A DNA stretch of 64,000 nucleotides from an uncultured Parabacteroides sp. (GCA_949289155.1 CASEMX010000013.1:39065-103064); one strand, 5' to 3'; shown: positions 6,940 through 63,798, counted from the first letter of the stretch. Made by a program: numbers and translations. The notes: generated by a model from the sequence alone, not told the origin.

Positions 6940-6969
6940 TCGCCACCCCGAGCGGACTCAGGATGGCGA
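6940..6969 (-). terminator. 3' hairpin of surface-protein paralog 1, shared with paralog 2
   Basis: Minus strand reads TCGCCATCCTGAG-TCCG-CTCGGGGTGGCGA; nearly identical to 63757-63786. Confidence 0.7.
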
Positions 6970-6995
6970 AATGTTGCATGTCTTAACGGCCTCTT

Positions 6996-9332
6996 TTATA
7001 ATCTTACTTTAAATCGCTGCTCGTCGATACATATAATATATATGCCGCGCTGCAGACCGGTGTATTGCTTCAATCCCACTTGCGTTTCGTTCTTCATGAC
7101 TGCGCCGCTGGCTGAGATTATCGTTACTTTCTCCTCAGTCGGAGTATATACATAGATGCTTCCATCCTTCGTATAGACCTTTGCACCTTCGATGTTCTCG
7201 ATGCCGGTTGGCACTGCACCTTCGGCACGGACATAAATATCGGTGTAGATATTCTCAATGATATATTCGTTCGGGTTTTCGGTCGGCGTCAATGTCAAAT
7301 CCTCCCAATACCCAAAGAGGCTACGCTTGAACGTCAGAGCCAAGTCCGTGGTATCAAATTCTTCATCTACCTTGATGGTCACAAGCACCGACTGTCCCTC
7401 TTTCACCACATCGCGACTGAACTCAACCGTCACGCCCTCGCAGATTTCCTCTTCGTAGATGTTGTAGTATTTGGGAGCGTCCGGAACGATGCCGCCCTGT
7501 TCGTCGTCGCCTTCGTCAGGGTCAGTTGGCTCTTCGTTTTTCGTAAATTGGGCAGTAACTGTTACATCTGCGTCCGGCATGGTAAATGTATAGATATTCT
7601 CGCCGGTTAATGTGGTTTCGATTGCCTCCGTACCCACAACCGACAATCCGCCGAACGTATAGCCTTCGCCAGTTGTAACCGTGAGTGTGATTGTTTCGCC
7701 GACAATTGCCGTAGTTTTATCAGATGCAACCGTTCCGCCTTCTGTATCAACGATGGTAATTGTGTGTGCCGTTTTCTTTTGAGCATACAAGGTTATATCT
7801 TCACTTATCGCTGATTCAGAAGTATAAAGATTGCCTTCGCCATCATACCAACCTGCATTCTCTTCCAATTCCGGCAAGTTCAGATAGCCGCTGTTTGCAT
7901 ATTGCTCTGCAGCTGCCGTTTCATCATAGCTTTCATAATTTAATGTCAATTTATAAACAGCATCATCTGGTGTGAAACATAATAAAGTAGGAGATTCGGC
8001 TGGCGTGTTGCTATGGAGGTCTTGCCCGTAATTGCCTCCTGCTTTTCTTAGTTCGTAGGCTACTGTGCCGTCTATGAATTCTTCTTCAGTAGCTTTCTCT
8101 ATTTCGCCTCCTTTGTTATTATAGCTATCGTTATTATTTCCTCCAACAGCATTCACTCCTTTTTGCTGTAAATAATAGTTATTGCTAAATTTTGTATTGT
8201 TAATGCTTCCTGAGATACTTCCAACATTTACAAACGAGAGAATACCCTCAGAAACTTTTACCGTTGATTCGATCGTTCCTACATTATAACAATTAGTAAT
8301 TTCATTGCCCATCTCGTTCGCATTAATACCACCAATATATATCGCACATGTGTTGTCCTGTCCTGATACTTTTATTTCACCAGTATTATAGCAGGATGTA
8401 ATAGTAGAAGGTTTATTTGGATTGTTTCCAATTCCACTAATATACAACGTATAAAGAATCAGTGGATTTTGATTTTTGTTTCCAAATTCATTTACTGACA
8501 CATTTATAGTCCCTGTATTATATGAATTCACAATATCAATATTGGCAGATGGTTTGTCTTTGCTATTAATATTAGATATTCCACTAATAAAAATTCCACA
8601 TTGGCCATATGATTCTCCATTGTACGAAATATCATCCATTGAAACATTTATATTCCCCATATTACAACAAGACTCTATTCTTTCGTTTTCATATAAACCA
8701 CATATTCCACCAACATTGAGACTTGTGATTTTTGCTTTATCTCCTTTTATATTTATCAGCCCATCAAAAGAACATTTAACTATACTTCCGAATCCATCTA
8801 CGTTTCCGGCAATACCTCCTATATTTTTTAATTTCTCGTTTATTGAAACATCTATATAGCTATTGTCTATATGCACATTTTGTATAGTTCCAGCTATAAG
8901 TCCAAACAATCCAAGATGCTCATATTCTGATTCTATGTTTGATTTTAAATAAAGTCCGCTAATTGTATGTCCATTCCCATCAAATGTGCCATTGAAATTA
9001 GAGACGACTGCATTCTCACTTATTGGCGTCCATTCTTTCGCCGTTCCCGTAAAAACATCAGTCTCGCTTGTTGCTTTTTTATTAAAAATAATTCCAGGGT
9101 TCAAATCTATATCATGAGTCAATATAATAGTTTTCCCCTTAAAACCATCTGTCTCTTCATTCACTAACTTCGCCAATCCCGCCAATTCTTCCGCCGTAGA
9201 TATTTCGAATGTGGTTCCATTTTCTTTATACCAATCTGTATTGGCATTATCAATCCAATTTTCCTGCCCCCAAACCGCACCACTAAGCGTTGCCAAGAAC
9301 GCCATCAATAAAGTAAAAATTCTTGTCTTCAT
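6996..9332 (-). CDS. Secreted surface protein (paralog 1): signal peptide, GLUG/beta-helix repeats, InlB-B-like/Ig repeats, C-terminal T9SS-type sorting-like (DUF6383-like) domain
   Basis: Real start is MKTRIFTLLMAFLATLSGAVWG|QE at 9332 (the track start at 9473 lies in the leader). ISTAEELAGLA, FDGNGHTISGLY, repeated CYNxGxI and GGIxG; ends PTGIENIEGAKVY..GIYII..RFKVRL. Domain names come from pattern recall, not a database search. Confidence 0.75.
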   Translation of the reverse strand: MKTRIFTLLMAFLATLSGAVWGQENWIDNANTDWYKENGTTFEISTAEELAGLAKLVNEETDGFKGKTIILTHDIDLNPGIIFNKKATSETDVFTGTAKEWTPISENAVVSNFNGTFDGNGHTISGLYLKSNIESEYEHLGLFGLIAGTIQNVHIDNSYIDVSINEKLKNIGGIAGNVDGFGSIVKCSFDGLINIKGDKAKITSLNVGGICGLYENERIESCCNMGNINVSMDDISYNGESYGQCGIFISGISNINSKDKPSANIDIVNSYNTGTINVSVNEFGNKNQNPLILYTLYISGIGNNPNKPSTITSCYNTGEIKVSGQDNTCAIYIGGINANEMGNEITNCYNVGTIESTVKVSEGILSFVNVGSISGSINNTKFSNNYYLQQKGVNAVGGNNNDSYNNKGGEIEKATEEEFIDGTVAYELRKAGGNYGQDLHSNTPAESPTLLCFTPDDAVYKLTLNYESYDETAAAEQYANSGYLNLPELEENAGWYDGEGNLYTSESAISEDITLYAQKKTAHTITIVDTEGGTVASDKTTAIVGETITLTVTTGEGYTFGGLSVVGTEAIETTLTGENIYTFTMPDADVTVTAQFTKNEEPTDPDEGDDEQGGIVPDAPKYYNIYEEEICEGVTVEFSRDVVKEGQSVLVTIKVDEEFDTTDLALTFKRSLFGYWEDLTLTPTENPNEYIIENIYTDIYVRAEGAVPTGIENIEGAKVYTKDGSIYVYTPTEEKVTIISASGAVMKNETQVGLKQYTGLQRGIYIICIDEQRFKVRL

Positions 9333-9749
9333 AATATTTATGTGTTTAGTTAGTAAATAATTTAATTCAGCCGTACCGCATTTACGACTAACTAACCAAC
9401 CACTATGAAAGACAAAAAGAAAGTGCGGGCGAGTTGTTTTATTATCAAGTTGGGGGCATCGGCAAACGCCCACTATGCAGATAATTAAACAACAGCCCGC
9501 ACTCTATGCTGCAGGATATACCTATTCCTTTCAGATAAGTGTACAGCATGAGTGCAAGCATTCTTTGTTTATTATTCCTGCATAGTAAAATTTTGCCGAT
9601 TTTCCAACTTGGAATAATATCGTAAATGCTAAAACTCAGTATGTCCTTCCGCAGGATTACCCCTAATCCTCACGGAATTGCGACAAAGGTAGGGAACGCA
9701 AACGAAAATGCAAAGAAAAAGTAAAAGATATTTCAAGATTTTTATCGGA
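9333..9749 (-). promoter_or_regulatory. Conserved upstream module 1: upstream box, promoter and ~345-nt structured 5' leader
   Basis: Its reverse complement aligns with 61330-61731. Promoter TTTG (9711-9714) - N19 - TACCTTTG (9684-9691) on the minus strand. Confidence 0.8.
9445..9561 (-). CDS. Candidate leader peptide/uORF, 38 aa (MLALMLYTYLKGIGISCSIECGLLFNYLHSGRLPMPPT)
   Basis: ATG preceded by A-rich AGGAATAATAAACAAAGA; same start and frame are intact in the paralogous leader (61517-61627). Confidence 0.4.
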   Translation of the reverse strand: MLALMLYTYLKGIGISCSIECGLLFNYLHSGRLPMPPT

Positions 9750-9812
9750 AAGGTTGATAGAGCGGCGGCGAAGCGGGGAAGGAGTTGCTCCGTACATTGC
9801 ACACAGCAGCTC

Positions 9813-10394
9813 TGTTCTTTTGCCTTGATGCAAAAGAACCAAAAAATCAAGTTGCTCCCTACTTTCTGGCTTGACCCAGAAAGTAGCAAAGAGGTCAAGG
9901 CTTACACTCCAGAGGCTACAAATTCGCATCGCTCCGCTAAAATTTCGGAAACTCGCTTCGCTCAAACAACCGAAATTTCTTCACGCTCCGCTCGGAATTT
10001 GCTTAACGCCTCTTGCGTTAGGCCAATCCTTTCCCTATTATATATATGGTATATATAACCCCTCAGTCTCGCTACGCGAGCCAGCTCCCCTAAAACAGTG
10101 GAGCTTTTCAGATAGAAGCTAAGAGGGAACCGATGCCGAAGGCGAGAGAAAGGAAAGGTCGAAGACGAGGCGGAAGGAGGAAGGGAGAAAGGATTGGCCT
10201 CGGCTGGTGAGCGTAAAGCGAACGACCGGAATGAAGCGTCCGGAAGCTCGGCTGTTTGAGCGCGAAGCGCGAGTTTCCGAGATTCCAGCGAAATGAAGGG
10301 AGAGAGTAGCGAAGCAGGCGCAGCCTTGACCTCTTTGCTACTTTCTGGGTCAAGCCAGAAAGTAGGGAACAATTTGGGTCAAGGCAAAAGAACA
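9813..10394. repeat. 582-bp imperfect palindromic intergenic element (REP/MITE-like)
   Basis: Perfect 47-bp inverted repeat at 9856-9902/10322-10368; outer 15-bp IR TGTTCTTTTGCCTTG at 9813-9827/10380-10394; inner IRs GGAAACTCGC..CTCAAAC and GGCCAATCCTTT. Confidence 0.8.
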
Positions 10395-10404
10395 AGAAAG
10401 AACT

Positions 10405-11460
10405 TTATTTAATCACCGGCACAAGCGCACTGTGCGAGGGCTGATGGTTTTCCACGTAGGGCCAGCCGGCTTCGTCCCACAACACCTGGTCTAACAGCAC
10501 CTGCCGCTGTGCACCGAGATTCGATAGCTCGAACGCATGATAGAGCATCCACGTATTCCCTTCGTCATCCAGCTGCAGCAGGGCGTTGTGTCCGGTCCCT
10601 ACGAACGCACTGTCTTTATGGAGCACCACCTCGTGCTTGTTCTCCAGCATCTTTCCGCCCGACTTATCGACATACGGACCGAAGAGGCTCTCCGAACGTC
10701 CTACGACCGTCGTATAGGTGCTCTTTTCGCCTTCGCAGCAGGAGCCTATCGAGCCGAACAGATAGTAATAGCCATCCCGCTTCCAAAGATTGATACCCTC
10801 GTACGCATTGCCGGCAATCTGCCGCTTCGTCTCCAGCTTCGGCGTAATAGTCACGTCGTCCGTAATATCCAGTTCCATAATATATATCCCAAAGAAGCTG
10901 CCCCACAGGACGTAATACTTCCCATCCTCTTCATAAAGGAACTGGTCGATAGAGTTCTCGACATTCACATCCCGGCTATTGAAAATCTTGCCCTTCGGCG
11001 TAAAAGGTCCCTCCGGCTTGTCGGCCACCGCATAGCCAATCGTACTAATCCAATGGTTTCCCCACTCCGCCAGCGAATAGGTCAGGACATACTTCCCTTT
11101 TATATATTGGATATCCGGAGCCCAAAGCGCCGCGTGCTTCCCTTCGGGGTTATTATCGACGAAGTCCGGGCGGGTCGCATCCGTAAAGGCCGTGCCTACC
11201 TCCTCCCAGTCCACCATATTCTTCGACTTGAATATCGGCAAGTTCCGGATATCCTCCGTCGCATACAAATAATAGGTCCCGTCAGCCAAGCGAATCGCCG
11301 TCGGGTCCGGAGCCGCAATCCGTATCACCGGGTTATGGTATTCCTTTGCGACGGAGGTTGAGTCTGACGACGCTGCGTCCACTCCCTTGCCGGACTCCTT
11401 GCCCCCACATGCCATGCAGAGGAACATCCCGGCCCATAATAAATATTTTACCTTATACAT
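10405..11460 (-). CDS. GH43 glycoside hydrolase lipoprotein (arabinanase/xylosidase-like)
   Basis: Lipobox LCMAC; APDP, LWAPD, SIDQF, YEG, SIGSCCEG and GTGHNA motifs. Confidence 0.88.
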   Translation of the reverse strand: MYKVKYLLWAGMFLCMACGGKESGKGVDAASSDSTSVAKEYHNPVIRIAAPDPTAIRLADGTYYLYATEDIRNLPIFKSKNMVDWEEVGTAFTDATRPDFVDNNPEGKHAALWAPDIQYIKGKYVLTYSLAEWGNHWISTIGYAVADKPEGPFTPKGKIFNSRDVNVENSIDQFLYEEDGKYYVLWGSFFGIYIMELDITDDVTITPKLETKRQIAGNAYEGINLWKRDGYYYLFGSIGSCCEGEKSTYTTVVGRSESLFGPYVDKSGGKMLENKHEVVLHKDSAFVGTGHNALLQLDDEGNTWMLYHAFELSNLGAQRQVLLDQVLWDEAGWPYVENHQPSHSALVPVIK

Positions 11461-11668
11461 AATGAAGATTTTTTATTGAACAACTGCACAAAGATAGCTA
11501 TACTTCCCATGAAATACAACCCTATTGCCCTCGCGACTCGCCCCATATCCAACACATCGCTATCCTATGGGGAACCTCGCCTCTCCCCCTCGAAGAAAAC
11601 TTTGACGCTTCGAAAGAAAAAGTTCTTCGCCTCGAAAGGAAAAGTTTCTCGCGTAGTAAGCAATTCTT

Positions 11669-11752
11669 AAAACGCCACAGGCGTTTATAAAAACGACACA
11701 GGCAATTGTAAAAACGCCACTGGCATTTATAGAAACGGCACAGGCGTTTTGA
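11669..11752. repeat. 21-bp tandem array x4 (AAAACGcCACaGGCrtTTaTA)
   Basis: Units at 11669, 11690, 11711 and 11732. Confidence 0.85.
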
Positions 11753-11971
11753 CTTTTCTTCCTAAGCTGAGCAACTTTTCCTTTCGACGCGACAAAGTTT
11801 TCTTTTGGGAGGAAACCAACTTTTCTTCGGGGAGCTAAGGACGGAAGTGCTTAGGGAGAGGTCCGGTTTCTGCTACGGCGCGTGTGCCGAAAGCCTATGG
11901 GGAGCGGGAGCCATGCCCGCCGCGCAAGCAATTCTTTCCGTGAAGAGTATCCTTTCTCTCTCTTTTTTTCG

Positions 11972-11979
11972 TACCTTTG
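11972..11979 (+). promoter_or_regulatory. Bacteroidetes -7 promoter element (TACCTTTG) for fabI
   Basis: Matches TAnnTTTG, 25 nt before the ATG at 12005. Confidence 0.65.
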
Positions 11980-12004
11980 CGCCCGAATTAATAAGGTAAA
12001 AGTT

Positions 12005-12862
12005 ATGAGTTACAATTTATTGAAAGGAAAGAAGGGAATCATCTTCGGTGCGCTGAACGATATGTCTATCGCGTGGAAAGTAGCTGAACGGGCTGCCGAA
12101 GAGGGCGCAACGATTACGCTCAGCAACACGCCGATGGCGCTCCGGATGGGACAGACAGACGAATTGGCCAAGAAGCTGAACGCTGAGGTTATTCCTGCCG
12201 ATGCCACAAGCGTGGAGGATTTGCAGCAGGTATTCACCCGCTCGATGGAGGTGCTGGGCGGTCCGGTCGATTTCGTCCTCCATTCTATCGGAATGAGCCC
12301 GAATGTCCGCAAGAAACGCACATACGATGATTTGGATTATAACTTCTTGGAGAAGACGTTGGATGTATCGGCTATTTCGTTCCACAAGATGCTTCAGACG
12401 GCAAAGAAGCTGGATGCGATTGCCGAGTATGGTTCGGTGGTTGCCCTGAGCTATGTAGCAGCGCAACGTACATTCTTCGGATACAACGATATGGCGGACG
12501 CAAAAAGCCTGTTGGAATCTATCGCCCGCAGCTTCGGATATATCTATGGCCGGGAAAAGAACGTCCGTATCAATACCATTTCGCAATCACCTACGCCGAC
12601 TACGGCAGGCAACGGGGTAAAAGGAATGGACCACCTGATGGACTTCGCCAACAAGATGAGTCCGCTGGGCAACGCGACGGCAGACGAATGCGCCGATTAC
12701 TGCGTGATGATGTTCTCTGACCTGACCCGGAAAGTGACGATGCAGAACCTGTACCACGACGGCGGCTTCTCCAGCATGGGTATGAGCCTGCGTGCCATGA
12801 ACCAGTACAGCAAGAGCTTGGAAGAATATACCGACGAGAACGGGCATATCATTTATGGTTAA
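12005..12862 (+). CDS. fabI: Enoyl-ACP reductase
   Basis: Start MSYNLLKGKKGIIFGALND.SIAW (the track's upstream extension is spurious); HSIGMS and YNDMADAKSLLES motifs. Confidence 0.92.
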   Translation: MSYNLLKGKKGIIFGALNDMSIAWKVAERAAEEGATITLSNTPMALRMGQTDELAKKLNAEVIPADATSVEDLQQVFTRSMEVLGGPVDFVLHSIGMSPNVRKKRTYDDLDYNFLEKTLDVSAISFHKMLQTAKKLDAIAEYGSVVALSYVAAQRTFFGYNDMADAKSLLESIARSFGYIYGREKNVRINTISQSPTPTTAGNGVKGMDHLMDFANKMSPLGNATADECADYCVMMFSDLTRKVTMQNLYHDGGFSSMGMSLRAMNQYSKSLEEYTDENGHIIYG

Positions 12863-12866
12863 TGAA

Positions 12867-12931
12867 GAATTACGAATTACGAATTACGAATTTCTATTTT
12901 GTCCGTAATTCGTAATTCATAATTCGCAATT
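12867..12931. repeat. Heptamer-repeat hairpin (GAATTAC)n ... (GTAATTC)n
   Basis: Direct 7-mers followed by their reverse complements, between fabI and the Sua5/YciO gene. Confidence 0.8.
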
Positions 12932-12940
12932 AAATAAATT

Positions 12941-13552
12941 ATGTTAGTCAAGATTTATGAAGAGAATCCGAATCCGAAGGAGATAGCCAAGGTGGTAAAG
13001 GTCCTTCAAGACGGAGGACTGGTCATCTACCCGACCGACACGGTCTATGCCCTCGGATGCGACGCATTGAATGTCCGTGCCGTGGAGAAGATATGCAAGA
13101 TAAAAGGGGTCAATCCACAAAAAAGCAACCTCTCCATCATCTGCTACGACCTATCCAACCTGAGCGAATATGCGAAAGTGAGCAATGCGGCGTTCAAATT
13201 GATGAAACGATACCTGCCCGGTCCTTATACCTTCATACTTCCTACGAGCAGCGAACTCCCTAAAATCTATAAGAACAGGAAAGAGGTCGGCATCCGTGTG
13301 CCGGACAACCAAATCGTCCGCACGATTGTACAGGAGCTGGGCAATCCGTTGCTCACGATGTCCGTACATGACGACGAAGATGAAGTGATGGAATACTCCA
13401 CCGACCCGGAACTTATCGACGAGAAATACGAAGGGAAAGTAGATATCGTCATCGACGGCGGATACGGAGGCATCGAACCCTCGACGGTAATCGACTGTAC
13501 CGGCGACGAGTTCAGCATCATCCGCCAAGGGAAAGGAGAAATCAATATTTAA
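12941..13552 (+). CDS. Sua5/YciO/YrdC family protein (threonylcarbamoyl-AMP synthase-like)
   Basis: YPTDTVYALGCD, LPGPYTFIL, VGIRVPD and PSTVID motifs. Confidence 0.88.
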   Translation: MLVKIYEENPNPKEIAKVVKVLQDGGLVIYPTDTVYALGCDALNVRAVEKICKIKGVNPQKSNLSIICYDLSNLSEYAKVSNAAFKLMKRYLPGPYTFILPTSSELPKIYKNRKEVGIRVPDNQIVRTIVQELGNPLLTMSVHDDEDEVMEYSTDPELIDEKYEGKVDIVIDGGYGGIEPSTVIDCTGDEFSIIRQGKGEINI

Positions 13553-13566
13553 AAGGATATATTATT

Positions 13567-14463: not shown

Positions 14464-14472
14464 ATCGAAATA

Positions 14473-36731: not shown

Positions 36732-37706
36732 TCACTTAATATACGCCTCCATGAACTTAGCCTTAGGGGCCGGTGTCAATGTAACCGCTTTCGCTGTAGT
36801 CGGTATCAATACAGTCTGTCCCTGATGAACCGAAATCTCATACCCATTATTATCGCACAGCGTTGCCTTCCCTTCCATGCAAATATACACTACGAACGAA
36901 TCCAAATCAGCAAAGTCGCGCGTCATCTGCGCATCCATATCAATCAGATTCGTTGTGAAATACTTACAATCCGCCAAATTCACCGTGGCATTAGAATGTG
37001 CTTTGTAATGCGTCCGGTAATCCGGATACAACGTATAATCGATAGCATCCTTAGCCAACTCGGTATGCAACTCACGCGTGTTACCATTCTTATCCTTGCG
37101 GTTATAATCATAAATGCGATAAGTAATATTGCTGGTCTGCTGGATTTCAGCAATAAAGCAACCTGCGCCGATAGCATGCACACGGCCTGCCGGGAGGAAG
37201 AATACGTCACCCGCATTCACATCATAGCGTTGCAACACGTCCATAATCGTATTATTCTTCACGCGCTCCACATATTCTTCCGCATTAATCTGCTGAGAGA
37301 AGCCGGAATAGAGCGATGCGCCCTTATCTGCCTTGATTACATACCACATCTCCGTCTTTCCGAAAGAATTGTGCCGCTTTTGTGCCAATTCGTCGTTCGG
37401 ATGCACCTGAATAGAGAGATTATCGCGGGCATCGATGAACTTTATCAACAACGGGAAGCGCGTTCCGAAACGTTCCATTACATGCGCGCCCAATAAATCC
37501 TTACCGTATGCCTTGATTAAGTCATCTAAGGACTTATTTGCCAATTCGCCTTCTGCGACAATCGAATAATCGCCGTCAACATGCGACAATTCCCAACTTT
37601 CTCCTATACCCTCTTGTACCGGAGATATGCCCTTAAACGGACAAATTTCTGAGCCGCCCCAAATAACACTCTTCAGAATCGGCTTAAAAGTCAATGGATA
37701 CAACAT
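36732..37706 (-). CDS. manA: Mannose-6-phosphate isomerase, type I
   Basis: IWGG, GESWE, FPLLIKFIDA..LSIQVHP, KTEMWY, HAIGAG and EIQQTS motifs. Confidence 0.93.
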   Translation of the reverse strand: MLYPLTFKPILKSVIWGGSEICPFKGISPVQEGIGESWELSHVDGDYSIVAEGELANKSLDDLIKAYGKDLLGAHVMERFGTRFPLLIKFIDARDNLSIQVHPNDELAQKRHNSFGKTEMWYVIKADKGASLYSGFSQQINAEEYVERVKNNTIMDVLQRYDVNAGDVFFLPAGRVHAIGAGCFIAEIQQTSNITYRIYDYNRKDKNGNTRELHTELAKDAIDYTLYPDYRTHYKAHSNATVNLADCKYFTTNLIDMDAQMTRDFADLDSFVVYICMEGKATLCDNNGYEISVHQGQTVLIPTTAKAVTLTPAPKAKFMEAYIK

Positions 37707-37715
37707 GGTTATCTA

Positions 37716-39833
37716 TTATTTCTGTTTTTTAGTTGTTTTACTTGTACTCTTTTTCGTCTTTGCTGTTTTCGAAGCTACCGTCTTTTCTTTCGGAGCCTCC
37801 GCCGCAGCTTTTGTTTTCTTGGGTTCTTTGACTTTTCGCAGAACCAAAGCGGAACGCGCCGGAACATACAGTTTCAGCCATTCCTTCTTTTCCTTTTTAT
37901 ACAATGGGTCGAACTGCGTCAAGTGCTGGACGGAATCGTCATTCAAGCCAAATCCGCCGAAGCGCGGCGAGTCGGTATCCAACACGACCTCATATTTTCC
38001 GAGCGGAACCAAGAAGCCATAGTCCGTGAAGGACTTATTCGGGCTGAAGTTGAACACAAACACCAAATCCTTGCGCATATAGGCCAGAATCTGGTCTCCG
38101 TCGTTGTCCCAAACCTTCTGGAGCGGCGTCTTCTGGAAATCCTTCACGCTCCGAATCAGATGAACCATCTCGCGGTCGAAATCGCCCAAGAAATGATACT
38201 TCAAATCCAAGTTATCGACCAGATTCCATTGCCGGCGGGCATATTTATACGACCAACCATTCCCTTCGCGCGGGAAATCTATCCATTCCGGATGCCCGAA
38301 CTCATTGCCCATGAAATTCAAGTAACCGCCATTTATCGTCGAAGCCGTGACCAGACGAATCATCTTGTGGAGCGCCATTCCGCGTTCAACCATGAAGTTG
38401 TGGTCATCCTTCTGCATGTGCCAATACATATCCGCATCAATGAGGCGGAAAATGATGGTCTTGTCGCCTACCAACGCTTGGTCGTGGCTTTCCGCATAGC
38501 TGATGGTCTTCTCATCGGCACGGCGGTTGGTCGTTTCCCACCAAATAGCCGACGGATGCCAGTCCTCGTCTTTCTTTTCCTTTATCGTCTTAATCCAGAA
38601 GTCCGGAATATTCATCGCCATACGGTAATCGAAGCCATAGCCGCCATCTTCTATCTTAGCCGCCAAGCCCGGCATACCACTCACCTCTTCCGCTATCGTA
38701 ATCGCATTCGGGTTGACCTCATGAATCAGCTTGTTTGCCAGCGTCAGATAGGCAATCGCGTCGCCATCCTGATGTCCGTTGTAATAATCTCCGTAATTGC
38801 AGAACGCCTCTCCCAATCCGTGGCTATAATACAGCATCGACGTCACGCCATCGAAGCGGAACCCGTCGAATTTGTATTCCTCCATCCAGAACTTGCAGTT
38901 GGAGAGCAAGAAATGGAGCACTTCGTTTTTGCCATAATCGAAGCATAAAGAGTCCCACGCCGGATGCTCGCGGCGGTCGTTCCCATGGAAGTACAAATCG
39001 TACGAGCCGTCGAAACGGCCTAAGCCTTCCACTTCGTTCTTCACCGCATGGCTGTGGACAATATCCATAATCACTGCCAGCCCCAGCTTGTGTGCTTCGT
39101 CGATGAGCTGCTTCAATTCGTCCGGCGTACCGAAACGGGACGAAGCCGCAAAGAAACTGCTGACATGATAGCCGAACGAGCCGTAATAGGGATGCTCCTG
39201 TATCGCCATAATCTGCACGGCATTGTAGCCCTCCTCGACGATACGCGGCAGGACATGCTCGCGGAATTCATTATAGGTTCCGACCTTCTCCTCGTTGGTC
39301 GCCATCCCGATGTGGCACTCATAAATCATCAGCGGAGAAGTATTGGGTTTGAACTTCTTGGTTTTGAAGACATAGGGTTTGTCCGGGTTCCACACCTGCG
39401 CACTGAAGATTTTCGTCTCATTGTCCTGCACTACGCGGCGAATCCACGCCGGAATGCGTTCGCCGCATCCGCCGTCCCATTCAACCCAGAGCTTAAACAA
39501 ATCCTGATGATGCAATTTATCCAGAGGGAGTGTGATTTCCCATACGCCGTTATCGCCGCGCGTCAGCCGATAGTCCTCCGACTTTTGCCAGCCGTTGAAT
39601 GTGCCTACCATGTAAATAGCAGTAGCATGCGGCGCCCACTCGCGGAAAATCCAACCTTTCGCAGTTTTATGCAATCCGAAATACAAATAACCGGAAGCAA
39701 AATCGGACAAAGACAGCTTTCCGCCGTTCGTCAAGCTCTTCTCTTTGTCCTGCACATACTGATAACGTCCTTCTATGGCTGCTTTATAAGGTTCCAACCA
39801 CGGGTCATTTTTTATTAGATTTAGAGACTCCAT
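37716..39833 (-). CDS. glgB: 1,4-alpha-glucan branching enzyme (GH13) with a Lys-rich C-terminal tail
   Basis: FREWAP, YECHIG, EHPYYGSFGYHV, FRFDGVTSM, AEEVSG and YAESHDQA motifs. Confidence 0.95.
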   Translation of the reverse strand: MESLNLIKNDPWLEPYKAAIEGRYQYVQDKEKSLTNGGKLSLSDFASGYLYFGLHKTAKGWIFREWAPHATAIYMVGTFNGWQKSEDYRLTRGDNGVWEITLPLDKLHHQDLFKLWVEWDGGCGERIPAWIRRVVQDNETKIFSAQVWNPDKPYVFKTKKFKPNTSPLMIYECHIGMATNEEKVGTYNEFREHVLPRIVEEGYNAVQIMAIQEHPYYGSFGYHVSSFFAASSRFGTPDELKQLIDEAHKLGLAVIMDIVHSHAVKNEVEGLGRFDGSYDLYFHGNDRREHPAWDSLCFDYGKNEVLHFLLSNCKFWMEEYKFDGFRFDGVTSMLYYSHGLGEAFCNYGDYYNGHQDGDAIAYLTLANKLIHEVNPNAITIAEEVSGMPGLAAKIEDGGYGFDYRMAMNIPDFWIKTIKEKKDEDWHPSAIWWETTNRRADEKTISYAESHDQALVGDKTIIFRLIDADMYWHMQKDDHNFMVERGMALHKMIRLVTASTINGGYLNFMGNEFGHPEWIDFPREGNGWSYKYARRQWNLVDNLDLKYHFLGDFDREMVHLIRSVKDFQKTPLQKVWDNDGDQILAYMRKDLVFVFNFSPNKSFTDYGFLVPLGKYEVVLDTDSPRFGGFGLNDDSVQHLTQFDPLYKKEKKEWLKLYVPARSALVLRKVKEPKKTKAAAEAPKEKTVASKTAKTKKSTSKTTKKQK

Positions 39834-40020
39834 TTTCTATTTCTATTAATTGGTTCTATGGGCAAAGGTAAACAAAAAAACAGTAGGCAGGTGATTTCTA
39901 ACGGAAAAGTTGCGGGATAGAGCGGGAAAATGCCTATTCTGCCCGGCAAAACAACGGAAAACAGCCCCCCGCACCCACACGCCGAAGGTTTGTATCGGTC
40001 GCATGGTTCGCGTATTAGTA

Positions 40021-40252
40021 CGCCGACGTGATGTACCGGTACATGAGCTCGGCGTACTACTTCGCTGACGTAATGCACCGGTGCATGGGCTCCGCGTACT
40101 ACTTCGCCGACGTGATGCACCGGCACATGGGCTCGGCGAACTACTTCGCCGACGTGTTGCACCGGTGCATAGGCTTGGCGAACTACTTCGCCGATGTGAT
40201 GCACCGGTGCATGGGCTCCGCGTACTACTTCGCCGGTGTTGCACCGGTGCAT
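40021..40252. repeat. 42-bp tandem array, 5.5 units, each with a 14-bp palindrome ATGCACCGGTGCAT or a variant
   Basis: Units at 40021, 40063, 40105, 40147, 40189 and 40231 (partial); no unique spacers. Confidence 0.9.
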
Positions 40253-51034: not shown

Positions 51035-52480
51035 ATGCAAGATTCAAGAAATGTATTAGACGAAGTCACGAAAGGCGACTACAAGTACGGTTTCGTGACG
51101 GATATAGATACCGATGTCATCCATCGGGGGCTGGACGAAGAGACCATCCGCCTCATCTCTGCCAAAAAGAACGAGCCGGCATGGCTTTTGGAATTCCGCC
51201 TCAAGGCGTTCCGCTATTGGCAGACGATGGAGATGCCGGATTGGGCGCTCCTTCGGATTCCCCCAATCGATTACCAGGACATCATCTATTATGCCGCCCC
51301 TAAAAAGAAAGAAGGGCCGAAGAGCATGGACGAGGTGGACCCCGAATTGCTCAAGACGTTCGACAAGCTGGGCATTCCGCTCGAAGAGCAGAAGGTACTG
51401 AGCGGCATGGCGGTCGATGCCGTCATGGACAGCGTCTCCGTCAAGACGACCTTCAAAGAGAACCTGGCCGAAAAGGGCATCATCTTCTGCTCTTTCAGCG
51501 AGGCGGTGCAACATCATCCCGATTTGGTGCAGAAGTACTTGGGGAGCGTCGTCAGCTACCGCGACAACTTCTTCGCGGCGCTCAACTCGGCAGTCTTCTC
51601 CGACGGTTCGTTCATCTACATCCCGAAGGGCGTGCGTTGCCCCATGGAGCTTTCGACCTATTTCCGCATCAATGCGCAGAACACGGGGCAGTTCGAGCGG
51701 ACGCTCATCGTGGCAGACGACGAATCGTACGTCTCGTACCTCGAAGGGTGCACCGCGCCGATGCGCGACGAGAACCAGCTCCATGCTGCCATCGTCGAAA
51801 TCATCGCCCACGACCATGCCGAAGTGAAATACTCGACCGTGCAGAACTGGTATCCGGGAGACAAGGACGGCAAGGGCGGCATTTACAACTTCGTCACGAA
51901 ACGCGGCCTCTGCAAGGGCGAAGGCAGCAAGATTTCGTGGACGCAGGTGGAGACCGGCTCGGCCATTACGTGGAAATATCCGAGCTGTATCCTCGCAGGC
52001 GACAATTCCGTCGGCGAGTTCTACTCCGTCGCCGTGACGAACAATTACCAGCAAGCCGATACGGGCACGAAGATGATTCATTTGGGAAAAAATACGCGCA
52101 GTACGATTGTTTCGAAGGGCATCTCCGCCGGGCATAGCCAGAACAGCTACCGCGGGTTGGTGAAGGTGTCGCCCCGTGCGGAAGGCGCGCGCAACCACAG
52201 CCAGTGCGACAGCCTCCTGCTCAGCCCCACGTGCGGTGCGCACACGTTCCCGTATGCCGACATCCAAAACGAGACGGCAATCGTAGAACACGAGGCGACA
52301 ACCAGTAAAATCAGTGAAGAGCAGCTCTTTTACTGTCAGCAACGCGGCATCTCGACCGAAGAGGCCGTGGGGTTGATTGTCAACGGTTATGCCCGCGAGG
52401 TAATGAACAAGCTCCCGATGGAATTTGCGGTCGAGGCGCAGAAGCTCCTCAGCATCTCGCTCGAAGGAAGTGTAGGATAA
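51035..52480 (+). CDS. sufB: Fe-S cluster assembly protein SufB
   Basis: [27 protein letters not shown] and EHEATTSKI motifs. Confidence 0.97.
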
Positions 52481-52492
52481 TCTTGCTGGTAG

Positions 52493-52680
52493 GAAATTAG
52501 CTCCCCGCAACGAGAGGAACAAATTTCCGAGCAGAAATTAGCTCCCCGCAACGAGAGGAACAAATTTCCGAGCAGAAATTGCCTCCCCGCAACGAGAGGA
52601 ACAAATTTCCGAGCAGAAATTGCCTCCCCGCAACGAGAGGGAAATTGCCTCCCCGCAACAAGAGGAATAAATTTCCGGCT
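52493..52680. repeat. 41-bp tandem array (~4.5 units) between sufB and sufC
   Basis: GAAATTagCTCCCCGCAACGAGAGGAACAAATTTCCGAGCA at 52493, 52534, 52575, 52616 (truncated to 25 bp) and 52641. Confidence 0.9.
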
Positions 52681-53549: not shown

Positions 53550-53551
53550 GT

Positions 53552-55042: not shown

Positions 55043-55190
55043 CATGCCTTCCTCTTGCCTCCTATCCCCGTTCCAAACATTCCACTTCCGGCAGATAAGC
55101 GTCCAAATGTTAGGCTGCCTCAGAGTAATCTGAGTGTGAGCAGATTGGATAAAATCAGCACATAGGGGACGCCGACTCAGCTCAAAGGAT

Positions 55191-55339
55191 AGGAATCAGT
55201 GCCAGTGATTATAGGAATCACTGGCACTGATTATAGGAATAGGTAGTACTGATTGTGGGAATAGGTAGTACTGATTGTAGGAATAGGTAGTACTGATTGT
55301 AGGAATAGGTAGTACCGATTGTGGGAATAGGTACTACCT
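55191..55339. repeat. 22-bp tandem array x7 (rGGAAT-core-ATTrT) with inverted cores
   Basis: rGGAAT at 55191, 55213, 55235, 55257, 55279, 55301 and 55323. Confidence 0.9.
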
Positions 55340-55573
55340 TTTCTTTATCAATGTAGCTGCATCCCCTCTCTTTGTCCGTTGTTTCATAGGATAAGCCTGC
55401 TCTCAACATCTGCTTAACGTTTGCAATATGCCGACCTTCGGGAGTTTATCTTGGAAGATTCCCTCTATCTGTCAGATTCGTTTTATTATTTATAGGATTA
55501 TTTTTGTTCTAACTCAATTCATAAATACTTATTTATTTCTACCTTTGCGTTGACAGATTAGTTTTTATAATAT

Positions 55574-56470: not shown

Positions 56471-56473
56471 CTT

Positions 56474-56550: not shown

Positions 56551-56558
56551 TAAGAAGT

Positions 56559-57469: not shown

Positions 57470-57476
57470 GAAGATT

Positions 57477-58670: not shown

Positions 58671-58756
58671 CAAGCATTTAATAACCTCGAAGGATTATGG
58701 ATAGAAAAACAAAGCTTGGTAATCCTGTCCGAATCCTTCCTTAAACTATTATACTT

Positions 58757-59569
58757 ATGAGATTAATTATCGAACCGAATTACGAGCAGTTGTCTCAATG
58801 GGCAGCCAATTATGTTGCCGCCAAAATTAAAGCAGCCAATCCGACTGCCGAGAAACCTTTTATCTTAGGATTGCCCACCGGCTCATCGCCTTTAGGAATG
58901 TATAAGGCGTTAATCGAGCTGAATAAGAAAGGTGTCGTATCTTTCCAGAATGTTATTACCTTCAACATGGACGAATATGTAGGATTACCCAAAGAACATC
59001 CGGAAAGCTACCATTCTTTCATGTGGAATAACTTCTTCAGCCACATCGATATCAAGCCGGAGAACGTAAATATCCTGAATGGAAATGCTGAAGATATCGA
59101 GGCTGAATGTGCTGCATACGAAGCAAAAATGAAAGCTGTCGGAGGTGTCGATTTGTTCTTGGGCGGAATCGGGCCGGACGGACACATTGCGTTCAACGAA
59201 CCGGGCTCTTCGCTGGCTTCGCGTACCCGTATGAAGACATTGACAACAGATACAATCATTGCAAACTCTCGTTTCTTCGACAATGACGTCAACAAAGTTC
59301 CGAAAACTGCGGTTACTGTCGGCGTAGGTACGGTTTTGGATGCGAAAGAGGTGCTGATTATGGTGAACGGACATAACAAAGCACGCGCTTTGCAGCAAGC
59401 GGTCGAAGGCGCTGTCAATCAGATGTGGACAATCACTGCTCTGCAGCTCCATCCGAAAGGCATTATCGTTTGCGATGACGCAGCTTGTGCAGAATTGAAG
59501 GTTGGAACGTACAATTATTTCAAAGATATCGAGAAAGACCATCTTTGTCCTTGCTCGCTGCTGAAATAA
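58757..59569 (+). CDS. nagB: Glucosamine-6-phosphate deaminase
   Basis: [15 protein letters not shown] and [14 protein letters not shown] motifs. Confidence 0.97.
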
Positions 59570-59598
59570 ATCGGAAATAAAACGGATTTAAAGTCGTT

Positions 59599-59656
59599 CG
59601 GCACAGATTGCACTTACCCGGAAAGGCAGTGCAGTTTGTGCCGGACTTTTTTTATT
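59599..59656 (+). terminator. Hairpin/terminator between convergent nagB and the NamZ-like gene
   Basis: CGGCACAGATTGCACT ... AGTGCAGTTTGTGCCG followed by a T-run. Confidence 0.65.
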
Positions 59657-59676
59657 TACAGGCTTTCTACTCTTTT

Positions 59677-60852
59677 CTATTCTTCATACAGTAAATACTT
59701 TTTCCGCATGGCCTTATACGCATCCAAGTCCGATTGCCAGGAAGCGCGAATCTCCTCTTCGCTCAATCCTTCGATAATCTGCTTCCGAAGCTGGTCAGTC
59801 CCTGCCAACAAATCAAACCATTTTTCGCGGGAAAAGAAGAACTTGGCGTCGTTGCCCGATTTATGATAGAAATCCAACACAAACCGCAACGTCAATCCGC
59901 CTTCAAAAGGATATTCCTGCAGGTTCACCCCGTAACAGCATTTGTTCTTCTGCTGCGGATTCATATCGAAGCCCGGCAAAGAGGTCGGGGTAAAGGTATA
60001 ATCGCCGAACTTCTCGTCCGGATAACCAATCATCTGGAAAGGATGGTACGTCCCGCGGCCTATGCTGAAAGGAGTTGCCTCGAAAAAGCACAGCGAAGGA
60101 TACAGGCGGACGGACTGGTCGTTCGGAAGGTTAGGCGAAGGCTTGACCGGTAACCAATAAGGGTCGCCATGCTTCCAATTCAACATCGTCACAACCTGCA
60201 GCTTACAAGAATTCGCCCCGCTTTTCAGCCAGCCCTCTCCATTAATCATCCGGGCTAACTCGCCTACCGTCAGTCCATGCAGCAGCGGTATCGGGTCGGT
60301 CCCGACAAACGAACGGAATCCCGGCTTGCGTACCGGTCCATCCACAAAGTCGTTTGGGTTCGGGCGGTCCAATACGATAAACTCTTTCCCATTCTCGGCA
60401 CACGATTCCATCACATAGTGCATCGTACTGATATATGTGTAAAAGCGCGCGCCTACGTCCTGAATATCAAAGACAACTACGTCGATATTCTTCAGTTGCT
60501 TTGCCGTCGGAGCCTTCTGTTTTCCATAAATCGAGACTATCGGGACACCCGTACGCACATCCTTGCTGTCCGCTATCTCTGCTCCGGCATCTGCTGTCCC
60601 ACGAAAACCATGCTCCGGCGCAAATACACATTCGACCCGAATGCCCGCTTCTACCAAAGCATCCAACAAATGAAGCTGACGGTCATGCAAAACAGAGGTT
60701 TGATTGACCACCAATCCTACCCTCTTCCCTTCGAGCAGCGCCGTAACCTCATCCAACCGCTCTGCGCCCAATACAATCTCGGCACTCTTCTGCGCGACGG
60801 CCATCCCGACAAGGCAAAGCATAAAGCCAATAAATAAAACAATCTTTCTCAT
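59677..60852 (-). CDS. DUF1343 / exo-beta-N-acetylmuramidase NamZ family
   Basis: Signal peptide; FAPEHGFRG, DIQDVGARFYTY, LDRPNP, HGLTVGELA and PSPNLP motifs. Confidence 0.9.
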   Translation of the reverse strand: MRKIVLFIGFMLCLVGMAVAQKSAEIVLGAERLDEVTALLEGKRVGLVVNQTSVLHDRQLHLLDALVEAGIRVECVFAPEHGFRGTADAGAEIADSKDVRTGVPIVSIYGKQKAPTAKQLKNIDVVVFDIQDVGARFYTYISTMHYVMESCAENGKEFIVLDRPNPNDFVDGPVRKPGFRSFVGTDPIPLLHGLTVGELARMINGEGWLKSGANSCKLQVVTMLNWKHGDPYWLPVKPSPNLPNDQSVRLYPSLCFFEATPFSIGRGTYHPFQMIGYPDEKFGDYTFTPTSLPGFDMNPQQKNKCCYGVNLQEYPFEGGLTLRFVLDFYHKSGNDAKFFFSREKWFDLLAGTDQLRKQIIEGLSEEEIRASWQSDLDAYKAMRKKYLLYEE

Positions 60853-60919
60853 GGTTCATTGTAAATAGATGATTAAGACAAAGGTAATACTTTCTGATTT
60901 ACTTCGCTCTTTTCTCTTG

Positions 60920-60991
60920 AAAGAAAAGAACCAAAAGTTCCCTACTTTCTGGCTTGCACCTTTTGGTTCTTTTGCATCAAGGCAAAAGAAC
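60920..60991. repeat. Fragment of the same palindromic family as 9813-10394
   Basis: GTTCCCTACTTTCTGGCTTG (60937-60956) and GGTTCTTTTGCATCAAGGCAAAAGAAC (60965-60991, reverse complement of 9814-9840). Confidence 0.75.
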
Positions 60992-61145
60992 GAAGGAATA
61001 TAGGTAGGAAATTACTTCCTAAGCAACCGGAAAACTACTTACTAAGTAGTACCCCCCTCAACTTAGTAAGCTGACGAACGACAGCTTACCGACGTGACAA
61101 GCGACTACTTAGTAAGCAGTTTTCAGACAGAGCCTGAAAGTTGCC

Positions 61146-61229
61146 TATCGTAGCGACCGACAAGTCTATATCGTAGCGACTAACCTCTCTATATCGTAGC
61201 GTCGGACCTCGCTACGATATAGACTTGTC
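61146..61229. repeat. 23-bp tandem array x3 (TATCGTAGCG) plus one inverted 20-bp copy
   Basis: Units at 61146, 61169 and 61192; 61210-61229 is the exact reverse complement of 61159-61178. Confidence 0.8.
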
Positions 61230-61329
61230 AGCCTCTACGTATGCATTTGCCGAACTCCACGAGGGGGAAAGGAGAACTTCTATACGGAGCCGTTTGGGGT
61301 TGCTTCGGGAAGGCCGCGGAGCGGTCTCT

Positions 61330-61731
61330 CCAATAAAAATCTTGAAATATCTTTTACATTTCCTTTGCTTTTAGCTTTTAGATGTTTACCTTTGTCGCAA
61401 TTCCGTGAGGATTAGGGGTAATCCTGCGGGAGGACATACTGAGTTTTAGCATTTACGATATTATTCCTACAACTAAAAATCGGCAAAATTTTTATCACAG
61501 AGGAATAATAAACAGGATGCTTGCACTCGTGCTGTACACTTATCTGAAAGGAGAAGGTATATCCTACAGCATAGAGTGCGGGCTGTTGTTTCTTTATCTC
61601 TGTGATGGGCGTTTGCCGATGCCTTAGTTGTAGATAATAAGCAACTTGCCCGCACTTTCTTTTTGTCTTTCATAGTGATTGGTTAGTTAGTCGTAGATGC
61701 GGCACGGCTGAATTATTTACTAACTAAACAC
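61330..61731 (+). promoter_or_regulatory. Conserved upstream module 2: upstream box, promoter and structured leader
   Basis: TTTG (61364-61367) - N19 - TACCTTTG (61387-61394); aligns with the reverse complement of 9343-9749. Confidence 0.8.
61517..61627 (+). CDS. Candidate leader peptide/uORF, 36 aa (MLALVLYTYLKGEGISYSIECGLLFLYLCDGRLPMP)
   Basis: 30/36 residues identical to the uORF at 9445-9561; same ATG position. Confidence 0.4.
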   Translation: MLALVLYTYLKGEGISYSIECGLLFLYLCDGRLPMP

Positions 61732-63727
61732 TGGTCGGGAATGCGGTTTGGGGCAGGAAACCACGACAACTCCAGAAACAGAAACTATCGACGGCAAAAC
61801 TTTCTACTTATTGGGCACTAAAGAGGATTTGAAATGGTTTCAAGAACATGTAAGCGAATCTGAAGATAATGCCAGTGCTTGTGCGAAGCTGACGGATAAT
61901 ATTGATTTGGGGAATGAGGAATGGGAGCCGATAATGTATAAAGAAACTGCTTCAACAGGAATTAGTGTAAATGTAAAATATACAGGTACGTTCGATGGTA
62001 ATGGGAAAACTATAAAGGGGCTTTATATTAAGAAAGAAATAAGTGGTTTAGATCCTTCAACTATATTAGAAGTTCTTTCTTCCCTATATAATGGCTTGTT
62101 TGGAGTTGTAGGAGATTTAAATGCCACGGCTTTTCCCTCTGATGGTGAAGTAAAGAATTTAACTGTCGAAGGGAAAATGGAATGTTCTACTCCAGTAATG
62201 GGAATGGGTGGAATATGTGGATTAAATAAAGGCACAATCCAGAATTGTATAAATAAAATTACTTTAGTAGGCACAGGCTCAACCAAAGGTGCGACCTCTA
62301 CGAACTATATAGGTGGAATCTGTAATTTAAATCAAGGTATTATAAACAATTGCACTAATGAAGGAAGTATTACCACGTCTGTTTACGCTGCTGGAGGGAT
62401 ATGTGGTGCAAATAACGGTGTTATCGAAAAATGTTACAATAAAGGAGCAATTACAGAGTCCGAATCTGGCCTTGCTGCACTTGGCGGAATATGTGGAGTT
62501 ATAGCCGGGGACGAGAATGAGAATAAAGATTTTAAAATCAATAATTGTTTTAACACAGGCGTACTAACCGCAAATGAAGGAAGAGCTTCAGGAATTTGTA
62601 ACCTTACCACCGATGCTATAAAAACGATAGTTCTGACTAATTGCCATAACTATGGAAATATAAAAGGGCAGTCTGAAAAGAAAGCAGGAATTTGTGTATT
62701 TAATAATAGCAATTATGCTATAGATGAAGAAAAAACAACTATATCAAACAATTATTATTTAGAGAGCACTGTAGAAACAGGTTGGTTATATAGCTATGAA
62801 GCAAGCGTAACTCCCAACGACCAGCCTGGGCAAGTCGAAGCTAAGTCAGAAGATGCCTTTGCCAACGGCGAAGTCCTCTATCTCTTGCAGCAAAACAATG
62901 CCGGGGTTTGGGAGCAAACCATAGGCACAGATGATTATCCGGTATTCGAAGCGACGAGCACACCATCTACTGTTTATCAAGTCACCTTCGACTACAACTA
63001 CGAAGGCAGTCCCGAAGCAATTATATATTATGTAGAAGAAAGCGAATCGGTAACGGTTCCGACAATGACTCGCGAGGGCTATACCTTTACGAATTGGTCA
63101 ACCGATGCCGCCGGTGAAAACGTAGTTGAAATATCCGGCTCGATTACTCCGGATGCAAGTGTTACCTACTACGCCCAGTGGCAAGCCGAGCAGACAGAAG
63201 AACCCGGTGACGACGACGACAATCCGGGCGGCATCGTTCCGGACGCTCCCAAATACTATAATATATATGAAGAGGAAATCTGCGAGGGCGTAACGGTTGA
63301 GTTCAGCCGCGATGTGGTGAAAGAGGGACAATCGGTGCTGGTAACCGTGAAGGTCGATGAGGAATTTGATGCAACGAAGATGACGCTGAAGTTCAAACGC
63401 AGCCTGTTTGGATACTGAGAGGATTTGACATTGACGCCGACCGAGAACCCGAATGAATATATCATCCAGAATATCTATACCGATATTTACGTCCGCGCGG
63501 AGGGAGCCGTGCCAACCGGCATCGAACAAATCGCCGGCGCGAAGGTTTATACGAAAGACGGCAACATCTATGTACAAACCCCAACGCAAGAGCAGGTGCA
63601 GATTATCTCAGTCTCTGGCGCAGTGCTGAAGAACGAGCAGCAAATCGGACTGAAACAGTACACCGGACTGCAGCGCGGTATATATATTATAGGTATAGGC
63701 GAGCAGCGGTTTAAAGTAAGATTATAA
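61732..63727 (+). pseudogene. Surface-protein paralog 2, lacking start codon and most of the signal peptide, with in-frame TGA at 63416-63418
   Basis: The leader joins directly to CTGGTCGGGAATGCGGTTTGGGGCAG (signal-peptide tail, G4 instead of G5). The 63227-63727 C-terminus matches paralog 1 except FGY-TGA-EDL versus FGY-W-EDL. Confidence 0.75.
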
Positions 63728-63756
63728 AAGAGGATTAAGTTAAGACATGCAACATT

Positions 63757-63798
63757 TCGCCATCCTGAGTTCGCTCGGGGTGGCGATTTGTGTTTTTT
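63757..63798 (+). terminator. Intrinsic terminator of paralog 2
   Basis: TCGCCATCCTGAG-TTCG-CTCGGGGTGGCGA followed by TTTGTGTTTTTT. Confidence 0.8.

Follow-up and report, generated by a model that had tools for sequence, protein, structure and literature searches.

Passenger exchange between constant gene ends in a probable family of type IX secretion cargo proteins from an uncultured Parabacteroides sp.

Introduction

In gut Bacteroidales, surface variation is known to rely mainly on the inversion of promoters at capsule and S-layer loci. Antigenic variation by gene conversion is known from Neisseria pilE/pilS, Borrelia vlsE and Treponema tprK, and Mycoplasma pulmonis vsa is an inversion locus, while the closest described process to the one considered here is the domain exchange among rgpA, kgp and hagA, cargo genes of the system for type IX secretion (T9SS) in Porphyromonas gingivalis. 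Tannerella is usually classified in the same family as Parabacteroides. The nearest architecture described so far is that of the KLIKK proteases of Tannerella forsythia (Ksiazek et al. 2015, PMC4404884), whose genes lie downstream of lipoprotein genes (PMC9890683). Here we describe two genes, copies A and B, in a stretch of 64,000 nucleotides (nt) from an uncultured Parabacteroides sp. (GCA_949289155.1, CASEMX010000013.1:39065-103064; the window hereafter), and find that they probably belong to a multigene family of Sec- and T9SS-exported, adhesin-like proteins that is hypervariable through recombination between constant ends.

The likeness to P. gingivalis lies in the process, as there too recombination or gene conversion of paralogous T9SS cargo genes sharing long identical segments gives rise to mosaics. 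However, in P. gingivalis it is shared adhesin domains that are exchanged, whereas here shared ends frame unrelated passengers and the 5′ non-coding leader belongs to the shared module. With pilE/pilS, vlsE, tprK and vsa the family has in common that variable surface segments are framed by constant sequence able to support recombination and that some copies lack a start codon. In contrast to the pilE/pilS type, there is no single expression site served by promoter-less cassettes, since promoter and leader are present in 10 of 10 copies, and the copies without a start codon are genes with strain-specific lesions that other strains carry intact. Unlike at vsa or the invertible loci of Bacteroides, the contigs that we compared are collinear (n = 11), and only a PDDEXK_2 gene lies beside a third copy, C.

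The KLIKK genes resemble the present ones in that T9SS cargo genes of a single genome combine unrelated central domains with a following conserved region and a C-terminal domain (CTD) that is almost identical, and one locus here (locus G) also has a lipoprotein open reading frame (ORF), placed between the leader and the cargo gene. The passengers here are, however, adhesin-like (GLUG, InlB-B-repeat and leucine-rich repeat, LRR) and not proteases, the C-terminus is FKVR followed by L, I or N instead of KLIKK, the family is dispersed and numbers about 21 members compared with 6, and allelic replacement among strains is documented. Furthermore, a structured leader of about 345 nt is co-conserved here, where the KLIKK paper describes only an A/T-rich tract of 50 bp (PMC4404884). 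The variability of these surface genes is of a known sort, and the attenuator-like leader is the most novel component.

Results

A dispersed family with constant ends

Copy A (6996-9332, minus strand) is intact and encodes 778 amino acids (aa), and copy B lies some 52 kb away in inverted orientation (Table 1). Three arms of their upstream modules, within 9363-9752 and 61326-61715, are 89-94% identical, and the signal-peptide tail GCGGTTTGGGG(G)CAGGAA is found in both. The 501-nt C-terminal blocks (6996-7496 and 63227-63727) are equal in length and 83.4% identical, being part of inverted-repeat arms of 547 nt that are 82% complementary (6990-7536 and 63187-63733), and the 3′ tails (6938-6987 and 63739-63788) are 98% identical. 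This conserved tail (6938-6995 in A) is 96-98% identical among copies A, B, C and G.

We surveyed the genome from which the window derives (C13:39065-103064), a metagenome-assembled genome (MAG) of 2.88 Mb in 75 contigs. By BLAST, the upstream module (about 440 nt) occurs at 10 loci, namely A, B and C on contig C13 and D to J on seven other contigs, and the 166-aa C-terminal block is encoded by about 21 genes. In the alignment rows of this genome, the 21 blocks are 53-92% identical to that of A. Copy C, the third full copy, lies on the plus strand at C13:35971-38216, 850 nt to the left of the window. At least four of the roughly 21 members are disabled (B, C, C22_1717 and C6_39040). Relatives identified through the CTD are uncultured Parabacteroides MAGs.

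The N-terminus of copy A, judged by inspection only, consists of MKTR, a hydrophobic core and AVWG/Q, which fits the Q-rule given for Bacteroidetes signal peptides in PMC5837995. This putative signal peptide is common to at least eight paralogs, and the proteins end in RFKVRL, RFKVRI or RFKVRN. Between these ends the passengers differ strongly. GC content is 34% in A (7995-9260) and 40% in B (61760-63226), compared with 45-50% in the C-terminal block and 47% in the genome, and in copy A the variable passenger has a GC content at third codon positions (GC3) of 27%, and the constant block one of 59%. The passengers of A and B share 27% protein identity, those of the family are unrelated or 25-51% identical, and the C passenger has no detectable similarity to those of A or B except in the B-repeat. 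According to Pfam, the passengers carry GLUG, InlB-B-repeat, BspA-LRR, He_PIG or Fn3_assoc domains or no known domain, and none carries a peptidase domain.

An initial annotation of the window had listed the similarities of A and B, had described their passengers as AT-rich and distantly similar, and had proposed a dispersed family. All of the listed similarities are present at the coordinates given for them, the description of the passengers holds, and the genome-wide copy count, far above two, agrees with a dispersed family; what had been presented as a two-copy pair has instead become 10 upstream modules, 21 C-terminal blocks and a third full copy.

Some further members are unusual. C22_1717 (C22:~180-1926) and C6_39040 (C6:~37400-39249) are split by frameshifts just before or inside the block preceding the CTD (pre-CTD), for which consensus errors in the MAG are an alternative cause, and a member on contig C58 is without an evident signal peptide. 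At locus G (C25:30819-38168) the leader is followed by a 396-aa lipoprotein-like ORF, by other ORFs and then by a 1550-aa cargo gene that carries the family signal peptide, an arrangement reminiscent of the lipoprotein (potempin) genes upstream of KLIKK proteases.

Table 1. Positions of the parts of copies A and B, counted from the first nucleotide of the window.
Feature	Position	Strand	Remarks
Terminator-like hairpin 3′ of the copy A stop codon	6940-6969	-	13 pairs, 8 of them G-C, then a T-rich tail (scan)
C-terminal sorting domain of A, 75 aa	6999-7223	-	Predicted T9SS type A-like fold; sub-threshold profile matches
Pre-CTD Ig/FN3-like domain of A, 91 aa	7224-7496	-	Forms the 501-nt constant block together with the CTD
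Semi-conserved C-terminal part of the A passenger	7497-7994	-	InlB B-repeat / Flg_new_2; PF18998 at residues 523-599
Hypervariable N-terminal part of the A passenger	7995-9260	-	GLUG-like repeats; 34% GC, GC3 27%
Putative signal peptide of A, MKTRIFTLLMAFLATLSGAVWG/Q	9264-9332	-	3′ end of the 5′ homology arm
Long covarying hairpin of the A leader	9378-9630	-	Read as the antiterminator conformation
Terminator-like hairpin and U-tract in the A leader	9412-9504	-	Overlaps the 3′ arm of the long hairpin
Bacteroidetes-type promoter of A: TTTG, 19 nt, TACCTTTG	9684-9714	-	Read from the sequence
Promoter and complete leader of B	61364-61731 (promoter 61364-61394)	+	Ends at the deletion junction; 85-87% identity with the A module
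Signal-peptide tail remnant of B	61732-61759	+	Deletion junction 61731/61732; G4 run 61750-61753
Passenger of B	61760-63226	+	GLUG and Listeria-Bacteroides repeat; open frame
Constant C-terminal block of B	63227-63727	+	In-frame TGA at 63416-63418
3′ tail and terminator hairpin of B	63739-63788	+	Inverted repeat, 98% complementary to 6938-6987

Passenger exchange among strains

We searched for exact matches to the L19 protein encoded next to the A locus and obtained 10 contigs from other samples, whose flanks are 96.2-99.7% identical to the window. We found that the gene is intact in 10 of 10 of these sister strains (653-778 aa), and that at least six passenger classes with 25-55% mutual protein identity occupy the locus in the 10 strains. 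The 5′ break-points of seven strain alleles fall at 9257-9265, which is the predicted signal-peptidase site. On the 3′ side, homology ends where the constant block starts (7514/7535) or ahead of the B-repeat (7994/8078). Four sister-strain alleles share the C-terminal part of the A passenger up to 7994, and L031 shares it up to 8078. As these contigs have unique flanks on both sides, the A-locus result is the most robust.

Furthermore, one and the same passenger can be found at two loci. The C passenger is 98-100% identical across strains and, with its signal peptide intact, occupies the C locus or the B locus depending on the strain. In L024 and L025 it lies at the B locus with an intact signal peptide and is 100% identical over at least 800 nt. 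In L025 the B leader (99.5-100%) is followed by the C cassette and the C CTD, then by 500 nt of the C 3′ flank and finally by the B downstream flank; the B downstream flank is present in both L024 and L025, with different CTD types. Joins of the C passenger to the B locus occur in three samples, with a B-type leader in L025 and L026 (98.6-100%). The C cassette, at 100% identity compared with 98.6% for its flanks, suggests a recent transfer.

At the C locus of another strain (ERZ16268106; L032, 300-1100) we observed another gene, which is frameshifted and has a different signal peptide, MKKLFLLFLLIANMGFAQ, and a weakly related leader of its own, indicating that the C locus can hold other cargo families.

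No inversion was seen in 11 contigs: the 10 A-locus contigs and one scaffold spanning C, A and B are collinear with the window. Beside the loci, where neighbouring ORFs are partly annotated, we found no site-specific recombinase, only the PDDEXK_2 gene. This gene encodes a PD-(D/E)XK nuclease-family ‘transposase’ (PF12784, Rpn/YhgA-like, E = 4e-59; C13:34633-35566 on the minus strand, and L021:6637-7566) and sits between copy C and another cargo gene. The PF12784 family has been described as recombination-promoting, and a link to cassette exchange would be pure speculation.

Recombination within the genome

Exchange has left traces among the paralogs as well. J and H are 61% identical in the pre-CTD and 97% in the CTD, J is 86-90% identical to A, B and C in the pre-CTD and 63-67% in the CTD, and D and A are 56% identical in the pre-CTD and 83% in the CTD. 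The pre-CTD and CTD trees conflict, as approximately unbiased (AU) tests rejected shared clades with p values from 1e-7 to 1e-79. The sharp conversion tract common to J and H starts exactly at the border of pre-CTD and CTD and extends for about 300 nt, past the stop codon into the 3′ untranslated region (UTR). In the leader tree A, B and C group together, as do E, G and I, while J stands apart, which makes J a three-way mosaic.

The initial annotation had inferred that passengers are swapped between conserved flanks and had allowed for an inversion of the intervening 52-kb segment. Judged by these sequence comparisons, the former holds on evolutionary and population time scales, given at least six classes at the A locus, the C passenger at two loci and trees of neighbouring segments that are significantly discordant in the AU tests; the collinearity of the 11 contigs speaks against the latter.

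Lesions in copies B and C

Copy B is not an intact gene; it carries three lesions that mark it as a decaying pseudogene, a point that the initial annotation had overlooked. Compared with the intact L027 ortholog, a clean deletion of 52 nt has removed the ATG and most of the signal peptide; a G5 run has become G4 at 61750-61753, which shifts the passenger into a reading frame other than that of the signal-peptide tail; and TGG has become TGA at 63416-63418. The TGA is also present in at least four other assemblies (P0094, P0215, P0216 and P0219) and the G4 in one other, L068, whereas intact B-type proteins of 679 aa occur elsewhere (P0214). Given these intact alleles and the recurrence of the lesions in other assemblies, copy B is best described as an allele that decays progressively in its own lineage. 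Recoding of the TGA was considered and rejected, as the intact allele in P0214 has TGG.

Copy C has a 36-nt deletion that removes the ATG and, in addition, an internal deletion in the leader. The deletions of B and C have an identical left end, immediately after AAACAC. At the C locus of L028 a deletion of 39 nt starts at the ATG, and in L069 an in-frame deletion of 63 nt has cost the hydrophobic core. Together with the G5 to G4 change, these make five independent lesions (C 36-nt, B 52-nt, L028, L069 and G5 to G4) that cluster in a 70-nt segment of start codon and signal peptide. No inactivating lesion was found in the passengers among the strain alleles and the A, B and C passenger alleles examined. 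Among the deletion junctions, microhomology is seen only at the 63-nt deletion of L069 (a 3-nt repeat, ATT). The clustering may reflect error-prone recombination at the 5′ junction, or selection for silencing that spares the cassette, or it may be the mark of a reversible switch with repair from paralogs. B and C are disabled alleles and not dedicated silent cassettes, and copies of the family are often silenced.

The C-terminal block and type IX secretion

From its predicted structure, the C-terminal block is an immunoglobulin (Ig)-like domain followed by a T9SS-type sorting domain. The AlphaFold2 (AF2) model of the 3′ module has a predicted local distance difference test (pLDDT) score of 87 and contains two beta-sandwich domains, and the folds closest to it are those of tandem FN3/Ig domains and of the RgpB CTD (entry 5ag8). 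The last 82 aa form a compact C-terminal Ig-like beta-sandwich with a core pLDDT of 88-94. In a Foldseek search of the PDB this domain matches the RgpB CTD (7pq4, TMq 0.57; 5ag8, root-mean-square deviation 2.9 over 65 columns), the entry 5hfs (TMt 0.66) and also the T9SS-bound CTDs of RemA and NucA (8gl6_D and 8glk_D), with weak E-values (0.004-0.04) of the kind usual for small sandwiches.

Profile hidden Markov models (HMMs) for the T9SS CTD, DUF6383 and GLUG, suggested earlier as a check, did give matches, but mostly below their curated cut-offs. TIGR04183 scores 17.0 bits for the A block and 14.1 bits for that of B (cut-off 23), PF18962 scores 14.5 bits, and 21.1 bits in paralog F (cut-off 27), and DUF6383 scores 15-18 bits (cut-off 23.7). 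A profile search of the block against PDB sequences returned nothing relevant, and the link to T9SS CTDs comes from fold comparison only. The genome encodes SprA (TIGR04189, 3019 bits, C25:46237-53433) and the PorU sortase (NF033707, 1177 bits, C9:45676-48978), which, with a CTD that folds like solved T9SS CTDs, is in line with the original assignment of these proteins as T9SS cargo.

A structured leader RNA shared by the family

The promoter, of the consensus generally known from Bacteroides, is conserved in 10 of 10 paralogs, and in all 10 copies it is followed by the leader of about 345 nt. Across nine paralogs RNAalifold predicts 97 pairs, of which 25 show compensatory double changes, and in two of the leader helices the sequence is wholly variable while pairing is kept. 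We extended this to 54 non-redundant leader copies, using nhmmer and our own pair counts. In the long hairpin 87.9% of cells are paired (slid controls, 36-42%), and double changes are seen at 47 of its 91 pairs. For the stem of the internal terminator, 81.5% of cells are paired compared with 38-61% in slid controls, and one of its pairs is TA in 25 copies and CG in 27. This terminator hairpin has 21 bp with a predicted energy of -41.7 kcal/mol and is followed by TTTCTTTTTGT, and the two competing folds of the leader are predicted at -99 and -90 kcal/mol. With two mutually exclusive folds, covariation and a U-tract, the leader looks like a terminator/antiterminator attenuator. It is most likely a transcription attenuator, in which the long hairpin would compete with the internal terminator.

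In comparison with riboswitch leaders and the protein-dependent attenuators ANTAR and T-box, the leader similarly occupies a 5′ UTR and has, as two mutually exclusive folds with three-way covariation, a long hairpin and a terminator. It differs in its fold, which is a single long interrupted hairpin of about 250 nt, and in its genes, since it would regulate secreted surface proteins and not metabolic genes. It also differs in having no match in Rfam 15, either at the gathering threshold or at E <= 1; in the window and the leader region Rfam returned only three tRNAs and one chance match. We therefore consider the co-conserved leader a candidate for a large, strongly covarying and previously undescribed cis-regulatory RNA. 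A conserved upstream ORF (uORF) in the leader was rejected, as the ORF may be as short as 4 aa or longer than 53 aa and its stops are not conserved in the 54 copies; for the same reason the conservation of the leader ATG is better explained by its stem.

The leader element occurs in 11 of 18 same-genus genomes besides our own, and in 0 of 12 genomes from other families of the order. In relatives it always lies upstream of genes for secreted CTD proteins and in their orientation, and these include a second CTD family. A diverged leader precedes this second family, indicating that the leader marks a regulon wider than the main family. In our genome the second family is represented at C13:30943-34122 (minus strand), with its diverged leader at C13:34210-34449, and in the relative G018 by L017 and L020; it has a different signal peptide and a CTD ending in ...VSVDGESFKVAVK. 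In one other relative (L016, G005:C158, 2041-3391) four tandem leader copies about 330 nt apart lie before a single cargo gene of 1143 aa, an array resembling tandem riboswitch or attenuator arrangements.

Discussion

We favour a reading in which each gene is built from a Bacteroidetes promoter, the structured leader of about 345 nt, a signal peptide, a variable passenger, an Ig-like domain, a T9SS sorting domain and a terminator. The 5′ module (about 500 nt) and the 3′ module (about 560 nt or more) would be kept for co-regulation, export and anchoring and would double as homology arms. Ordinary homologous recombination or gene conversion, presumably of the RecA type, both among paralogs and among strains after DNA transfer, would then replace passengers wholly or in part and would reshuffle the constant segments as well. 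Such replacement would leave fixed chromosomal loci holding very different AT-rich passengers across strains, and the likely driver would be diversifying selection by phage, host immunity or binding targets on proteins presumably displayed at the surface. Several points weigh against this reading. The clustering of lesions in the signal-peptide segment is not predicted by plain homologous recombination; the groups for the AU tests were picked after the identity matrix had been viewed; the CTD scores of the HMMs remain under the curated cut-offs; and the sister-strain sequences are all metagenome assemblies, in which joins within repeats of 80-100% identity, such as that of the C passenger to the B locus, are possibly chimeric.

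This last point leads to the possibility that mosaicism and lesions are largely assembly artefacts of MAGs, arising from chimeric joins, collapsed paralogs and consensus errors. Our own genome is a MAG of many contigs, numerous sister contigs end within the leader or the CTD, and L024 is a complex mosaic. We nevertheless consider such an origin quite unlikely, because A-locus contigs from 10 samples run through the entire gene into unique sequence on either side, the G4 and the TGA of copy B recur in independent assemblies, and the C-passenger joins at the B locus come from three samples. A simple old duplication, after which passengers drifted faster than the constrained ends without any exchange, can appeal to the plausible constraint on the structured leader, the signal peptide and the sorting domain. 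It is nonetheless highly improbable, as it would have to account for a C passenger unlike that of A or B outside the B-repeat, for sharp steps of identity at domain borders, for incongruent trees of neighbouring segments, for a 3′ tail that is 96-98% identical although non-coding, for the compositional break, and for a cassette whose similarity between strains exceeds that of its flanks.

Programmed antigenic or phase variation would assign to A the role of expression locus and to the start-less B and C that of silent donors or OFF states. As with pilE/pilS, vlsE or M. pulmonis vsa, gene conversion, or an inversion at the signal-peptide tail that the copies share, would then switch them on. 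Consistent with such a system, B and C lack the ATG while their passenger frames are open, both are inverted relative to A, 38 nt of the signal-peptide tail are identical in A and C, lesions are frequent at the B and C loci whereas 11 of 11 strains have an intact A locus, and five independent lesions fall in the signal-peptide segment. However, other strains have intact orthologs of B and C that include a full signal peptide, copies B and C keep promoter and leader (that of C with an internal deletion), B also has a stop codon in its constant block, only the PDDEXK_2 gene and no site-specific recombinase was found beside the loci, and no inverted arrangement occurs in the 11 contigs, so that programmed variation appears unlikely. 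A related idea, to which we give a similarly small chance, is that the shared 5′ module constitutes a reversible RecA-based system for ON/OFF switching and cassette choice of T9SS surface proteins, under a common signal-sensing attenuator RNA. Deletions and frameshifts in the 70-nt start segment would silence loci while leaving the passenger undamaged, and gene conversion from any of about 10 copies of leader and signal peptide would restore the segment.

Under the favoured reading of recombination between constant ends, our results suggest a second route of surface variation in this Parabacteroides-like lineage, in which the exposed parts of T9SS-anchored, adhesin-like proteins would be replaced wholesale. 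Such strain-level differences at fixed loci bear on strain tracking, on targeting by phage and immunoglobulin A (IgA), and on colonisation. Furthermore, the leader appears to define a regulon of secreted proteins, which makes the expression signal of T9SS cargo in gut Bacteroidales directly testable.

Other features of the region

Upstream of the A leader, four of the 10 sister strains carry a gene for a 199-aa sigma factor of the extracytoplasmic function (ECF) type, between GH43 and the leader. The same place in the window (9760-10400) is non-coding over about 640 nt and contains a segment between 55-nt inverted repeats (9848-9902 and 10322-10376) that are 96% complementary. Intergenic tandem arrays are found at 40010-40235, 52452-52640, 55170-55345 and 63903-63986, with periods of 42, 41, 22 and 42 nt, respectively, and the array after copy B is part of a repeated 3′ flank that is common to the C locus.

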